Below, piece after piece: positions 15,001-18,000 of a DNA stretch of 64,000 nt (the stretch's first letter is position 1; the number at the start of each line of letters is the position of its first letter). Made by a program: the position numbers. This DNA comes from an uncultured Verrucomicrobiae bacterium (GTDB lineage: Bacteria; Verrucomicrobiota; Verrucomicrobiia; Chthoniobacterales; JAFAMB01): the NCBI GenBank assembly GCA_963762565.1, contig CAVXLD010000011.1, positions 1 to 64,000 of the forward strand. The letters are read 5' to 3'.

Positions 15001-18000
15001 AAGAAACTGCTCAGAACATCATGGTTCTGCGATTTGCGAACGCGCTTTTCGAGCACCTTTGGAACCACCGCTACATTGACCACGTCCAGATTACCGCCAG
15101 CGAGAAGCTAGGCGTCGAAAACCGGGCCGGTTATTACGAGGGGGCCGGTGCGTTACGGGATATGGTGCAGAACCATTTACTGCAACTTCTCTGCTTGATC
15201 GCAATGGAGCCGCCGACGGACCTCAGCGCAGATTCAATTCGAGATGAGAAAGTAAAGGTCCTGCGTTCTCTCCGCCGGATCCGAGGGGAAACCGTGTTCC
15301 AGAATGTTGTGCGCGGCCAATACACCGATGGTTCGATCGATGGTGAGTCCGCAGTCGGTTACCGGCAGGAAAAGAACGTAAATCCCGGATCAATGACCGA
15401 GACTTATGCCGGGCTTAAAATCCTGATCGACAATTGGCGCTGGGCCGATGTGCCTTTTTATGTGCGGGTTGGGAAACGACTGCCAAAAGGCGGGACCGAG
15501 ATCGGGATCCATTTTAAGAATGCGCCGGGAGTATTGTTCAACCGTGACCAACCGAGCGGCCGGGACGGAGTCCAGAACGTTCTGGTGATCCGGATCCAGC
15601 CTGACGAAGGTGTTTCGCTCCGCATCCAATCGAAGGTACCGGGAGCGAGTGTGCAGATTCAGCCGGTAAAAATGGATTTCAGGTATGGCACCTCTTTTGG
15701 AAAAGCCAGCCCGGAGGCATACGAGCGCCTTTTACTCGATGCGATGGCAGGGGATGCCACTCTGTTTGCCCGGCGGGACGAGGTCGAAGAAGCCTGGCGA
15801 TTTATCGATGACATCGAGGCCGGCTGGCGGGAGCATGGCAACGAAAAAAACCTGGCCTTTTACTCGGCCGGGAGCTGGGGACCCGCAGAGGCGGATGCGT
15901 TGATTGAGCAGGACGGGCGGGGGTGGCGAAGACTGTGAAAGGTGATTGGTGATTAGTGATTGGTGATTGGTGGTTTATGAGCGCTGCGAGGTCATTCCGC
16001 GATCTTAGGGTTTATCAATTGGCTAGGTCCGCAGCCAGCGAGGTCCTTGAGGTTAGCAAATGCTTTCCGCGCGAGGAGCGGTATGCGTTGACAGATCAGA
16101 TTAGACGGTCGGCAAAGGCAACCAAAGCCATGATTGCCGAAGCTTGGGCTCGAAGACGATACAAAGCGGTTTTTATCAACAAACTTGATGAGGCACTAGG
16201 CGAACCGAGCGAGACTCAGTCTTGGCTCGATGATGCGCTAGATTCTGGGTACATCGATATTGATCAGTTCAGTAGAATGGATGCCACCTGGCGATCGATC
16301 GGAGGAATGGTCGGTCGCATGATTGATCGTGCAGCCGATTTTTGTAAGTACGCGTCTGATACCGACTATCGTGGAACGGTGATGGAAGGACCAGCCAGTC
16401 TGGATGAAGCGCTGTTTAATGACCTGGATGATGTTGCTACTTAAGAAGGTGAGCGAGCGACTAACCGATAAAAAGATATCTCGTTTGGCCGCGCCACTGC
16501 TCTCGGCCCGGCGCCGTCTTCCACCAATCACCAATCACTAATCACCAATCACATTTTATGTCCGCCCCCACTACCCCCAGAAACATCACCCGCGGAATGC
16601 CCATCGAAATCGGCAAGATCAACCGCAGCCTAACCCAACTGTGGGAACGAGAGGGAGATCAGCTGGTCAAGGCTTCGCTCGTAAATTTTGCGGTCTATAG
16701 CGAGGCTTCTGATGCGCTGACTTATAACACCAATCTCATGGAAGAGATTACGCGGGAACACGCTTGCCGCGCCATCTTGCTTGCTGCAAACCCGCTTGCT
16801 CCAAAACGCAGGATTCAAGCTTGGATTAGCGCTCATTGTCATCTGACCGGAGGCGGCGCCCGAGAAGTTTGTAGTGAACAAATTGCGTTTCTTTTGGAAG
16901 GCACCGGACCGGAAACAATGCGCAGTGTTTTATTCAGTCACCTGGATTCCGACCTGCCTCTGTATCTATGGTGGCAAGGTCCGTTCACTGGCAGTCTTGA
17001 CGTCCAGCTTTGGAGATGGGTTGACCGATTCTTCTTCGATAGTTGTTCCTGGCGTAACCCCAGCCGCCAGATGCAGATTCTTCGCGAATCGGTTGCCAGC
17101 GCTCGTTCTCGCATTGTGTTGTGCGATCTGAACTGGCGACGTTTGATTTATCTGCGGTTAGCGATGGCCCAGATGTTTGACCAACCTTGGGCCGCGGAGA
17201 AGCTCCGCACGATTAAAGCGCTAACGATCGTGTTCCATCCTGAGTATCAAACCACTGCCGTATTACTCGTGGCCTGGTTTGCCAGCCAGCTCCGCTGGGA
17301 ATTAATCGAACACTCCGATACCGAGTTCAAATTCGCCAAGCGCGGGGCCCAGGAGCCGGTCCGAGTTATCTTACAAGCGGTGCCGGGACAATGGGTCAGC
17401 GAGGTCCGAATCGATTTCGGCGAAGGATCATTCGATCTTAACTGGTCCGGTAAATTCTTAGAATGCAGCTGGTCCGATTATCAGGGCGTAAAGCAGCTTC
17501 TCCCTGCCGGCGGCACGACCATTGCCGACCTGGTAAGCGAAGAACTGGCACGAGGCGGAGAACATGTGACCTATCTTCGCGCCTTGGGCCTGGCGGAACG
17601 ACTCTGGGACTGATTTCCAGGAGCTAGGAGGGGCGTGTTGGCGAAACGGCGAATCGGCGCACCGGCGAATGGGCGCGTCGTGGCGGTAGGGCAAAAATCT
17701 CGGCGCGTCGCGGACGGACCATTCAGACCACGTGTATGCGCGCCGGATTTGAGCCGAGCCGTGGGGTTGCTACCTCGCCGGCTTCGATGGTCCACAGAAC
17801 GGTTACTCGCTGGATGTTGCAGCGTGCACGCATGGCTCAAATCCGGCGCGTAGACATCGATGGAAACGGCACGTCGTGGGCGCGCCGAGATTTTCGCCCT
17901 ACCGGCACCACGCGCCCATTCGCCGGTGCGCCGATTCGCCGTTTCGCCCACACGGCGCCCCTTGCGTTCGCCCGACAACACGCTATCTACTGCCCAATCG

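Follow-up and report, generated by a model that had tools for sequence, protein, structure and literature searches.

The 619 bp between zwf and opcA of an uncultured Verrucomicrobiae bacterium from soil form one cassette, which consists of a PF05635 gene and the two inverted arrays of 7-nt units enclosing it. Comparison within the genome, the genus and many phyla showed that this gene-in-arms layout is the normal state of the PF05635 family, and that gene and arms share one fate, being inherited, diverging, decaying and being replaced as one. In this lineage the units of PF05635 genes also build gene-less hairpins by the hundred, whose arms measure about 30 nt and whose 5'-3' polarity is fixed. 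We propose that the arms are putative cis-sites of the encoded PF05635 protein and that the gene-less hairpins are its non-autonomous population, a reading to which we assign a probability of roughly one half. The window, that is the whole stretch of DNA analysed, comprises 64,000 nucleotides at the start of one contig, and the features discussed are listed in Table 1.

The cassette between zwf and opcA

Table 1. Features of the cassette, its host genes and gene-less hairpins in the window.
Feature	Position	Strand	Remarks
zwf (glucose-6-phosphate dehydrogenase)	14202..15938	+	upstream host gene; G6PD_N 1.3e-60, G6PD_C 2.3e-126; start 14202 is the boundary from the ORF listing; TGA stop 15936-15938
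5' arm	15938..15973	+	GGTGATT/AGTGATT tandem units, about 4.6 copies; 36-nt inverted match, score 33
PF05635/TIGR02436 four-helix-bundle gene, 155 aa	15977..16444	+	PF05635 E 4.7e-25
Non-coding tail of the loop, 76 nt	16445..16520	+	from stop codon to 3' arm; sequence
3' arm	16521..16556	+	CACCAAT units, reverse complement of 5' arm; ends 1 nt before opcA ATG
opcA (G6PD assembly protein)	16558..17613	+	downstream host gene; OpcA_G6PD_C 7.2e-16, OpcA_G6PD_assem 1.8e-15
Gene-less hairpin, same unit family as cassette	37361..37480	.	GTGATTA ... CACCAAT, 65-nt unique loop
Gene-less hairpin, same unit family as cassette	24693..25001	.	loop with nested second palindromic element (GGGCGAGGCTCCCG ... 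CGGGAGC-GCGCCC)
Gene-less hairpin, related unit	6644..7013	.	GTGATTA ... TCACTAA, 324-nt loop with nested hexamer arrays

The ORF between the arms belongs to PF05635 (88.3 bits against a cut-off of 33.8) and to TIGR02436 (8.7e-23; 80.6 bits, cut-off 24). The core of the protein, residues 1-120, is basic (pI 8.9) and its C-terminal tail acidic (pI 4.1), and its relatives in the PDB, 2RLD (E 2.3e-6) and 2GSC (5.2e-5), were each deposited with five chains. A search of the cassette for a transposase domain gave none. In the PF05635 protein no known catalytic motif is evident and we know of no activity of PF05635 proteins, both of which count against our reading of the arms.

Avd, the accessory factor of diversity-generating retroelements (DGRs), has a distantly related four-helix-bundle fold and is itself pentameric and nucleic-acid-binding. 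The weak similarity of PF05635 proteins to bAvd-type models would agree with a role as such a factor, but the scores lie under the curated cut-offs (27.6 bits against 80 for the DGR-Avd model NF033474; 3.1e-11 for one paralogue against PF22296), no reverse transcriptase or template/variable repeat lies near the window gene, and the genome's reverse-transcriptase matches are found elsewhere (C11:224833, C12:184581 and C7:606825-607464). On account of these scores, the housekeeping neighbours zwf and opcA and the distant reverse-transcriptase matches a DGR link was rejected; we regard it as extremely improbable.

Aligned without gaps and in inverted orientation, the flanks of the gene match best over the 36-nt pair of arms in Table 1. 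Tandem Repeats Finder resolved the 5' arm into 4.6 copies of GGTGATT at 15941-15972 (period 7, 92% matches) and the 3' arm into 4.4 copies of CACCAAT at 16522-16552 (91% matches), confirming the enclosure by inverted heptamer arrays that the genome-wide survey's note had described for this gene. A variant unit of the 5' arm is mirrored at the corresponding position of the 3' arm. The first base of the 5' arm is the last base of the zwf stop codon, its end lies 3 nt before the ATG of the PF05635 gene, and it holds the sole Shine-Dalgarno-like motif (GGTGG), 4 nt ahead of the ATG. The non-coding tail of the loop can be aligned across the congeners G000, G003, G005 and G001. Contigs assembled from public runs stop at the arms, 'joints' that skip about 550 nt have sides of at most 32 nt with unknown letters between them, and in one public RNA run 6% of the sampled words were present.

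In RNA folds, the arms are paired in both the MFE and the centroid structure (z -6.5), giving a stem that closes the whole 600-nt element and reaches across the zwf stop and the opcA start. This supports an alternative in which the cassette acts purely at the RNA level, in the manner of an intervening sequence (IVS). The arms would then serve only as a long-range stem of the transcript, and RNase III processing or masking of the ribosome-binding site would excise or regulate the cassette mRNA within the host operon; the gene-less hairpins would be unrelated host structures (terminators, mRNA stabilisers) of the same slippage-prone units, and any covariation of unit and protein would reflect co-inheritance. 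The location of the Shine-Dalgarno-like motif points in the same direction, and RNase III excision of the S23p-bearing IVS has been experimentally shown in Coxiella, according to the available part of PMC4990558.

PF05635 arms in the genome, the genus and other phyla

A profile search of the genome gave eight PF05635 matches, seven of which scored above the cut-off. Inverted array arms were found at all seven (scores 13, 19, 33, 18, 59, 30 and 36), a count that covers the above-cut-off genes and leaves out the sub-threshold eighth match (C5:395495). Among 1984 heuristic ORF-genes of 100-220 aa, a score of at least 13 was reached by 61 (3.1%) and of at least 18 by 34 (1.7%). The seven include the copy at C5:382164, which had been described as armless; its TCGTCC hexamer arrays form an inverted pair that matches perfectly over 36 nt (C5:382067-382102 and 382563-382598), the right arm being located within the ORF, where it encodes an acidic tail. 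The unit period of PF05635 arms in this genome is thus 6, 7 or 8, and the claim of a period of exactly 7 does not hold here. Arm length stays at about 26-31 nt regardless of period, which fits better to a constraint on stem length than to a count of protein-binding units and is what the purely RNA-level alternative predicts. That alternative is also favoured by the location of four of the seven cassettes between co-oriented genes of seeming operons, with a fifth between two co-oriented genes.

Arrays are frequent in this genome (4479 tandem arrays, 1535 of period 7), and if many gene gaps hold arrays, small genes could often have arrays on both sides by chance. Indeed, OsmC, MaoC, EamA, glyoxalase, TrmO and DUF520 genes are also flanked by inverted arrays of one unit; however, most of these ordinary genes have a separate hairpin on either side, in an opposite-polarity or a nested arrangement. 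Chance was rejected by the ORF controls, seven of seven standing against the 3.1% background, and by the shifted and neighbour-ORF controls in congeners and other phyla, array-poor genomes included. It is left with next to no probability.

In five congeners, arms were present at 26 of 27 PF05635 loci, reproducing the count of the survey's note, and at none of 42 shifted controls; by period, 15 of the congener loci fall to period 7 and 12 to period 8. PF05635 orthologues are syntenic, with flanking genes common to 49 of 54 pairs at 80% protein identity or more, and are vertically inherited. The zwf-opcA cassette is common to four of the five testable genomes of the genus, this one included: it is kept in G003 and G005, and G001 shows internal deletions with the arms retained. 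In G002 the site is occupied instead by another PF05635 gene, which has another unit, and in another genus the site is about 4 nt long. The inverted ends of the cassette are tandem arrays. The genus offers no empty site from which a target-site duplication could be read, the nearest one (G008) belonging to another genus. At another site of G002, the 5' half of a PF05635 gene is fused to the gene's own right arm, and G000 has there a gene-less hairpin of another family. The finding that orthologous sites show exchange, shortening or loss of the cassette is new here.

These exchanges bear on a further alternative, in which the hairpins are primary and the genes their cargo: the arrays would be made by another process, and small selfish genes (PF05635, PF13366) would insert into the loops or be captured there, each clade preferring one type of array. 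The presence of different arm families and of a different PF05635 gene at the same orthologous sites agrees with it. The direction of decay does not, as it leads from gene-bearing to gene-poor with arms retained (G001 and the second G002 site), and an older hairpin that had newly gained an intact gene was not seen.

For the wide survey, the search query was an alignment of the three closest paralogues. Of the 77 loci, which come from many phyla, 47 have arms, compared to a single case each among the 140 shifted controls and the 44 neighbour ORFs, which bears out the claim that arms accompany the family in many phyla; the period was 7 in 45 of the 47. The other 30 loci were without arms at score 13, which counts against our main reading. 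Mismatches within the arms showed no strand asymmetry (68 loci; 91 G.U-compatible for the sense and 100 for the antisense RNA), and this speaks against the purely RNA-level alternative. The orientation of neighbouring genes argues likewise: the cassette shares its direction with 53 of 71 upstream and with 47 of 65 downstream neighbours, near the usual baseline of about 70-75% for neighbouring bacterial genes, and runs antisense to both neighbours in 7 of 58 cases.

The unit follows the protein, as had been claimed. The mean distance between units is 0.73 at 80% protein identity or more and rises up to 3.2 below 45% (0 of 500 shuffles as extreme); Spearman's rho between unit and protein is -0.41 (again 0 of 500 shuffles) and -0.23 for cross-phylum pairs alone. 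Units already differ much at 65-80% identity. Paralogues of one genome carry different units and clade-mates in other phyla related ones, for example the CAGTAAx clade of Verrucomicrobiota, Chloroflexota and Bacillota and the GAC[GA]GAR clade of a Desulfohalobiaceae MAG, Planctomycetota and Verrucomicrobiota. The change from period 7 to period 8 looks like a 1-nt insertion in the unit. This co-divergence of arms and gene over long distances and across phyla argues against the genes being cargo. As evidence for arms as cis-sites it is weakened in that simple co-inheritance of the cassette also predicts the covariation, and kin are not independent.

In five genomes of other lineages, each unit occurs almost only in the genome of its own gene (one unit has 6 matches in a second genome as well). 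Two of the five genomes have their unit dispersed (85 and 10 matches), and G190 and G191 have it only at the PF05635 gene. Therefore, dispersal is not a necessary property of the unit, and the arms of genes in genomes with no other array of that unit further contradict the view of the genes as cargo.

Gene-less hairpins and dispersed arrays

The arms of all seven PF05635 genes are drawn from abundant array families, in agreement with the claim that their units abound in the intergenic DNA. The GGTGATT family of the window cassette comprises 196 arrays and 55 short hairpins. Within the genus, 18 of 23 array families (period 6-8, at least 25 arrays) have a resident PF05635 gene, 10 of them in this genome and 8 in a congener; a PF13366 resident was found for none of the 23. 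The five abundant families AGCTAGG (by a strict criterion), AAATGAC, ACAGATG, AAAGGTG and AAAGACGC are without a resident in the six genomes compared, which we count against our reading.

In short pairs the polarity of each family is absolute (49:0, 39:0, 0:34 and so on), and this fixed polarity of the arms is new here. Among the gene-bearing pairs of 7-8-nt units, five of six have the canonical polarity, the sixth (period 8) being unclassable; therefore, the gene sits in the loop of a single element. The polarity of the gene-less hairpins, together with the match of 18 of 23 abundant array families to a PF05635 cassette, is left unexplained by the purely RNA-level alternative, which we consider on balance unlikely.

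Each gene-less hairpin has a loop sequence of its own, with no relation to other loops or to the interiors of cassettes, and the 55 GGTGATT hairpins have no loop sequence in common. Hence the hairpins are not copied as whole units, unlike REPINs. The orthologous site of the hairpin at 24693..25001 carries other arm families in congeners. The idea that gene-less loops are decayed cassettes was rejected, with one convincing remnant among 414 loops. In tblastn searches of these loops (E<=0.05), 88 PF05635 proteins gave six hits and eight PF13366 proteins one. The convincing remnant (C10:281603-281760) corresponds to the N-terminus of a C1-like gene (E 7e-6), and two further hits are a repeat that is inserted in the broken PF05635 copy on C3. 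With cassette interiors as blastn queries 36 loops were hit; among the 25 listed the matches are nested arms, except for two that again represent the C3-inserted repeat. This repeat of about 220 nt, shared by the C3 gene copy and two hairpin loops, and the great variety of loops (some with unique DNA, others with a nested palindromic element, with REP-like elements or with a gene) would suit genes that are cargo of pre-existing hairpins, a possibility that we judge decidedly improbable in view of the decay and co-divergence described above.

Known systems and a possible mechanism

ORF-bearing intervening sequences of 23S rRNA with an S23p/PF05635 ORF are described for helix 45 of Coxiella burnetii and for Leptospira (PMC4990558, in the part available; Ralph and McClelland, 1993, as cited there). 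In Coxiella, tandem GACAGAT heptamers (three to four copies) are located in the IVS stem just before the S23p ORF, and such IVSs were already suspected to be selfish or mobile, the ORF serving mobility (PMC4990558, same part). The window cassette has the same architecture, a PF05635 ORF in the loop of a long inverted-repeat stem with heptamers in the stem (36-nt arms), but is located in the gap of an mRNA operon and outside any 23S rRNA helix (9, 25 or 45). The genome's own 23S rRNA gene (C12:223485-226335, 2851 nt) contains no insertion, and 23S sequence is absent from all PF05635 loci fetched. In the accessible portions of the IVS literature searched, the heptamers figure as a local curiosity, not as a packaging of the whole family, and are unlinked to dispersed arrays.

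Heptamer arrays as such are known from Xanthomonas (GGGAATC) and Nostoc, where they were described as intergenic simple sequence repeats (SSRs) of about 28 nt, or four units (Rehm et al., 2015, PMC4692102, available sections). Each Xanthomonas genome has 70-75 convergent inverted pairs, in which the G-rich strand leads. For XCC0516, whose product is the PF05635 protein of PDB 2GSC, the start codon is overlapped by a GGGAATC array (supplementary file 2, row 27); the supplementary files, as far as available, list no partner array on the other side of this gene. These arrays thus resemble ours in being intergenic and in one case located at a PF05635 gene. They differ in interpretation, as the sections at hand read them as G-quadruplex-forming SSRs and draw no link to PF05635. 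The Xanthomonas PF05635 protein has been described as a homopentamer (Lin et al., 2006, cited in the available part of PMC4990558). Among the literature searched, which covered few subscription journals, no paper stated the general association of PF05635 genes with heptamer arms.

A second family, PF13366/GxxExxY (TIGR04256), proved to be wrapped like PF05635, but in words of about 9 nt, which is likewise new here. Arms were present at 11 of 12 places in this genome and at 25 of 28 in the phylum, compared to none of 56 controls. These small genes share the position inside inverted word arrays; they differ in their unrelated fold (PD-(D/E)XK nuclease superfamily) and in the word, the arms often starting with AACC[AG]C. 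Different repeat periods of two unrelated protein families in one genome are a further point that the purely RNA-level alternative leaves unexplained. The function of GxxExxY proteins is listed as unknown in the part of PMC3424549 at hand.

Our reading of the arms as cis-sites suggests the following mechanism. Judged by homology, the PF05635 protein would be a basic, pentameric four-helix-bundle protein related to the nucleic-acid-binding Avd. It may bind its own arms through their iterated units, whether these are present as hairpin or as single strand, and binding could cause the arms to be maintained or propagated with replication or repair enzymes of the host. The gene-less hairpins would, by analogy to REPINs and RAYTs, be non-autonomous members of the same families. 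The parallel with PF13366 suggests that 'word-array' cassettes are a general class, with a separate protein for each. We extend this only tentatively, and with considerable doubt, to undescribed 'word-array' replicators, whose autonomous members would be the PF05635 and PF13366 proteins: each would read its own 7-nt or ~9-nt unit and, with host replication or repair, seed, homogenise and spread polar inverted arrays through gene gaps. If true, such replicators would explain the long-noted heptamer excess in bacterial genomes, Xanthomonas and Nostoc included, as well as the hundreds of intergenic hairpins in soil Verrucomicrobiota, and ORF-bearing 23S rRNA IVSs would be the special case of a cassette that landed in rRNA.

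The large PF05635 family occurs in many phyla and has solved structures but no known function, and both ORF-bearing rRNA IVSs, since the early 1990s, and the bacterial heptamer excess have been without an explanation. A reproducible rule, with its parallel in GxxExxY, now ties them into one testable problem and names the protein, candidate DNA or RNA sites and natural 'specificity swaps' in the form of paralogues with different units. For annotators, the rule offers a way to recognise cassettes and their remains, and it explains assembly breaks in the gene gaps of such genomes.

The survey's note had likened PF05635 and its palindromes to RAYTs and REPINs, an interpretation that is, as a whole, partly supported. 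As seen in the available parts of PMC3337134, PMC3116915 and bioRxiv 10.1101/2022.05.22.493013, RAYTs are mostly single-copy, vertically inherited genes flanked by inverted copies of a dispersed repeat, and different paralogues go with different repeat families. The syntenic, vertically inherited PF05635 orthologues (the 49 of 54 pairs above) agree with this, and the genome's own RAYT-type genes gave the same flank signature in the same scan. The likeness fails in other respects. The window protein is a four-helix bundle with no known catalytic motif and not an HUH Y1 transposase (PF01797), the arrays have tandem units of 6-8 nt in place of the REP hairpins of those sources, the loops of doublets are unique and not replicas with their spacer, and some genomes (two of the five from other lineages) have the unit only at the gene, with no dispersed population. 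As a positive control, also new here, four small RAYT-type genes were the strongest other hits of the flank scan, in which their REP-like repeats surfaced too. Three of the four were identified with Pfam and one from its position in the genome search; a further such gene, containing a stop, lies outside the control set. The PF01797 genes are located elsewhere in the genome, and their own inverted repeats are non-periodic.

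A PF05635 gene between zwf and opcA and the arms of its paralogues

The genome under study (6.1 Mb, 54% G+C, 15 contigs) carries 619 bp between zwf and opcA, and this gap is made of four parts: two arrays, a PF05635 gene and a non-coding stretch (see table), which bears out the array-enclosed gene reported here by the genome-wide survey's note. The single variant unit is mirrored from one arm to the other; the 5' arm overlaps the end of the zwf stop codon by one base, and the 3' arm ends one base short of the opcA ATG. In the predicted RNA fold the two arms pair with each other and enclose the entire element, in the MFE as in the centroid structure (z -6.5, 20 shuffles). 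An RNA-only, IVS-like stem could explain such an element, a reading that we consider rather unlikely; ORF-bearing 23S rRNA IVSs are alike in protein and stem, but the zwf-opcA cassette does not lie in rRNA.

Coordinates of the zwf-opcA cassette and of other features (contig C11 unless stated)
Feature	Position	Detail
zwf	14202-15938	host gene 5' of cassette
5' arm, GGTGATT units	15941-15972	4.6 copies (TRF)
PF05635 gene	15977-16444	155 codons; PF05635 E 4.7e-25; TIGR02436 8.7e-23
Non-coding stretch	between PF05635 ORF and 3' arm	76 nt
3' arm, CACCAAT units	16522-16552	4.4 copies (TRF); complementary to 5' arm
opcA	16558-17613	host gene 3' of cassette
Best inverted match of the arms	15938-15973 / 16521-16556	36 nt
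RNA fold	15925-16570	stem extends past arms; last zwf codons and stop pair with opcA start region
Inverted period-8 arrays	14156-14272	upstream of zwf; CGAATGGG/CGCCCTTT; family has PF05635 residents in congeners
Inverted period-8 arrays	17640-17948	downstream of opcA; GGCGAATC/CGCCGATT; family has PF05635 residents in congeners
Gene-less AGGAGCT hairpin	23381-23634	gap orthologous to that of L212
GGTGATT hairpin loop	24740-24960	example with nested palindromic element
PF05635 copy L006	C5:382164	AddB-like/AddA-like gap
TCGTCC arms of L006	C5:382067-382102 / 382563-382598	perfect 36-nt pair
Broken PF05635 copy L005	C3:44185-44778	profile match ends at 77 of 106
Loops sharing the ~220-nt repeat of L005	C3:125759-126164; C7:221238-221585	87-94% identical
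Truncated PF05635 gene L212	congener G002, C20:4239-4587	5' half, ~62 codons, GTGAGAA type
Second zwf paralogue	C7:441938-443467	adjoins C7 cassette (period-8 arms, ~22 and 27 copies)
RAYT-type genes (small, IS200-like Y1 transposases)	C7:408676-409128; C3:712440-712931; C1:119038-119463; C9:102235-102684	33-61-nt non-periodic inverted flanks with REP-like palindromes (GTCCCGTAGGGAC, CCAGGCAC..GTGCCTGG)
GGTGATT hairpin	C3:760473-760795	loop with one doublet of the REP-like palindromes found beside the RAYT-type genes
AAATAGC hairpin	C10:281603-281760	loop matches (71% identity, E 7e-6) first 21 residues of AATAGCC-armed protein
PF13366 genes	C1:643950-644342; C11:151123-151641; C7:548354-548755	PD-(D/E)XK fold; 8 further places
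PF13366 gene nearest the window	64884-65312	just past window end

For each gene the two 220-nt flanks were compared, and the score of their best ungapped inverted match was taken as the arm score. The seven PF05635 genes all scored at least 13 (13, 19, 33, 18, 59, 30, 36). Among 1984 control ORF-genes of 100-220 aa, which came from a heuristic greedy ORF call and not from curated annotation, 61 (3.1%) reached 13 and 34 (1.7%) reached 18, so that chance is a very improbable explanation of the arms. The copy between the AddB-like and AddA-like genes had been recorded as lacking arms; it has a perfect inverted pair of hexamer arrays, the right one lying inside the ORF and being translated as an acidic tail, IEDEDDDEDEND. 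Arrays of this hexamer (TCGTCC/CGAGGA) are also nested in the loops of many heptamer hairpins.

The top-scoring control genes were IS200-like and of RAYT type, with arms that are REP-like and not periodic, and they are a positive control for the flank scan. Three were confirmed by Pfam scan and the fourth by its place in a genome-wide PF01797 search; the latter gave five small RAYT-type matches, the fifth having a stop codon and lying outside the control ORF set. The remaining control scorers were mostly ordinary genes flanked by two separate hairpins.

Arms and units in congeners and other phyla

The five congeners gave 44 PF05635 matches, for which 30 loci were returned and 29 distinct places tested, two with flanks too short. 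Arms of at least 13 were present at 26 of 27 loci and in none of 42 control intervals placed 750 nt away, reproducing the earlier count. Public species genomes gave 161 stretches encoding a relative; among the 77 testable of the best 80, 47 had arms of at least 13 (1 of 140 shifted intervals, 1 of 44 neighbouring ORFs) and 30 did not, and 23 reached 18 (none in the controls). The armed loci, with taxa taken from record titles or, for four, from the taxon labels of the tree, include Verrucomicrobiota, Salinibacteraceae and other Bacteroidetes-type bacteria, Planctomycetota, Chloroflexota, Desulfuromonadales, Desulfohalobiaceae, a Candidatus Acidoferrum MAG, Pseudomonadota, Bacillota and Kiritimatiellota. 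A period of exactly 7, claimed earlier for the family, was the best period in 45 of these 47 loci; it does not extend to the congeners (15 loci of period 7, 12 of period 8) or to the hexamer arms of the genome under study.

Published data from two further bacteria agree with these arms. In Coxiella, GACAGAT units stand in tandem, three to four of them, in the 23S IVS stem directly before the S23p ORF, as described in PMC4990558. Xanthomonas campestris has an array of four GGGAATC units that overlaps the start codon annotated for XCC0516 (PMC4692102, supplementary file 2 row 27); XCC0516 is the PF05635 protein whose structure is PDB 2GSC. The other side has no listed partner array, and where that paper treats the array its authors make no link to the gene. 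These Xanthomonas heptamer arrays are among the closest known things to the PF05635 arms. A literature search, most subscription journals lying outside it, found no statement of a general PF05635-array rule.

The seven paralogues have GGTGATT, GTGAGAA, CAGTAAG (twice), AATAGCC, GGAGTGGT and TCGTCC units, and the two CAGTAAG-armed copies are the closest pair (83% identity). In a tree of 83 proteins, a quick maximum-likelihood estimate with an unfinished careful search and many unresolved forks, units group by protein clade and not by host: a CAGTAAx/CAGTTAT clade holds proteins of this genus, of Chloroflexota and of a Bacillota MAG, and a GAC[GA]GAR clade those of a Desulfohalobiaceae MAG, Planctomycetota and Verrucomicrobiota. 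As the survey had stated, close homologues keep the unit and distant ones differ. Among 51 loci with period-7 arms, the mean unit distance was 0.73 at protein identities of at least 80%, 2.25 at 65-80%, 2.42 at 55-65%, 3.00 at 45-55% and 3.20 below 45% (Spearman rho -0.41, a value as extreme in none of 500 label shuffles; rho -0.23 for cross-phylum pairs only). Genus sub-clades of 80-96% identity have one unit apiece, and kindred sub-clades have kindred units (CAGTAAG/CAGTAAT at 54-59%, GGCGATAC/GGCGAAAG at 66-73%); one change of period from 7 to 8, CAGGAGT to CAGGAGTT, looks like a single-base insertion. Since kin share labels, the correlation reflects a shared descent of gene and arms rather than their co-adaptation. 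Gene and arms are one heritable cassette of IVS type.

Dispersed arrays and the proposed role of the protein

TRF detected 4479 non-redundant tandem arrays in the genome (1535 of period 7, 629 of period 8, 811 of period 9). Pairs with the same unit within 3 kb were inverted in 700 and direct in 221 cases; with spacers below 400 nt the ratio was 513 to 23, and at 400-700 nt 34 to 29. The polarity of short pairs is constant per family (e.g., 49:0, 39:0, 0:34, 27:0), with one exception in 40 families listed, so a gene within one element can be told apart from a gene between two elements. Canonical polarity was seen in five of the six period 7-8 pairs that hold a PF05635 gene; the sixth (period 8) gave no class. 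Isolated inverted pairs with 350-1300 nt spacers numbered 42, and six enclosed a PF05635 gene.

Of 23 array families of period 6-8 with at least 25 arrays, ten have a PF05635 gene with matching arms in this genome and eight more in a congener; AGCTAGG (strict criterion), AAATGAC, ACAGATG, AAAGGTG and AAAGACGC have no resident in these genomes. The loop of the AAATAGC hairpin on C10 may hold the remnant of a lost resident of an 'orphan' family. In five genomes of other lineages the gene's unit was almost confined to its own genome, the exception being the first unit with 6 matches in a second genome. Matches of the own unit numbered 85 in an Anaerolineales MAG and 10 in a Candidatus Acidoferrum MAG; a Desulfohalobiaceae MAG had it at two extra places, and an Akkermansiaceae and an Opitutus MAG nowhere outside the gene's arms. 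Because dispersal varies in this way, the constant unit is the gene with its arms, and the dispersed population is a lineage-specific addition.

We give a probability of about 0.5 to the following reading: the arms would be the protein's own cis-sites, the protein, by homology, a pentameric nucleic-acid-binding bundle (2RLD and 2GSC have five chains each; basic core, pI 8.9), and the dispersed arrays a non-autonomous population dependent on it. That the protein is a DGR Avd is hardly credible. The logic of this reading resembles that of REPIN-RAYT systems, whereas protein and repeat type differ. The survey's likening of the family to these systems gains some support from the RAYT genes, which give the same flank signal. 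A simple REPIN model is disfavoured by the loops of the 55 GGTGATT hairpins, which are unrelated to one another, by a convincing PF05635 remnant in only 1 of 414 hairpin loops, and by the two genomes with an undispersed unit. Arms of ~26-31 nt at every period, no strand bias of arm mismatches (91 vs 100) and a cassette orientation relative to neighbours close to the bacterial baseline count against it as well. Nucleotide matches between cassette interior and loops were nested arms or the ~220-nt repeat that also disrupted the C3 copy, where it makes up the rest of the ORF. Many GGTGATT loops hold a nested palindromic element of ~220-250 nt without arrays in its make-up, with ends GGTGGGGCGAGGCTCCCGAAAG ... 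CTTTCGGGAGCCTCGCCCCACC.

Cassette sites and a second family with arms

Cassettes occupy gaps between ordinary genes: zwf/opcA, histidine kinase/response regulator (twice, in paralogous operons), AddB-like/AddA-like, DEAD helicase/bioB, LacI regulator/PEGA protein and nucleoside transporter/second zwf, so that a G6PD gene neighbours two of the seven. Flanking genes were homologous in 49 of 54 PF05635 pairs of at least 80% identity, 175 of 396 at 65-80% and 58 of 881 at 55-65%, which argues that cassettes are long-term residents evolving faster than their neighbours. The kinase-regulator cassettes are 83% identical and their flanking proteins only ~50%; transfer between homologous sites would fit better than simple co-duplication.

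The zwf-opcA site was compared in the congeners except G004, whose contigs break there. The cassette persists in G003 and G005. In G001 the arms and the two ends of the gene remain, and internal deletions have removed ~230 nt; G002 has another PF05635 gene in the same position, one that belongs to the CAGTAAx clade and has arms of GTAATCA units. In G008, a genome of another genus, ~4 nt separate the genes (extrapolated tblastn alignments), and other genera have gene-less hairpins of other word families. Three further orthologous gaps of the window show the same pattern. One has four different arm families among congeners and, in G002, the half gene L212, fused directly to its right arm. Another has a 9-nt-word hairpin common to four congeners, an AGGAGCT hairpin in the genome under study and AATGACA in G001. 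That the genes are cargo of pre-existing hairpins seems improbable to us, gene and arms being co-descended.

Three loops of the isolated pairs hold a PF13366/GxxExxY gene instead, and their arms are built of 9-nt words. Arms of at least 19 were found at 11 of 12 PF13366 places in the genome, and none of the 23 abundant period 6-8 families is associated with PF13366. The family is present in 75 of 151 genomes of the phylum; among 28 testable of 30 loci returned, 25 had arms of at least 13, compared with none of the 56 shifted controls. Period 9 was the best in 14 loci, 8 in four, 10 in three and 11 in two, with a single locus each for 7 and 6. The same genome thus has two unrelated protein families of common architecture that differ in word length. 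The PF13366 arm words, of ~9 nt, include CGCAGATTA and CACAAAGAT.
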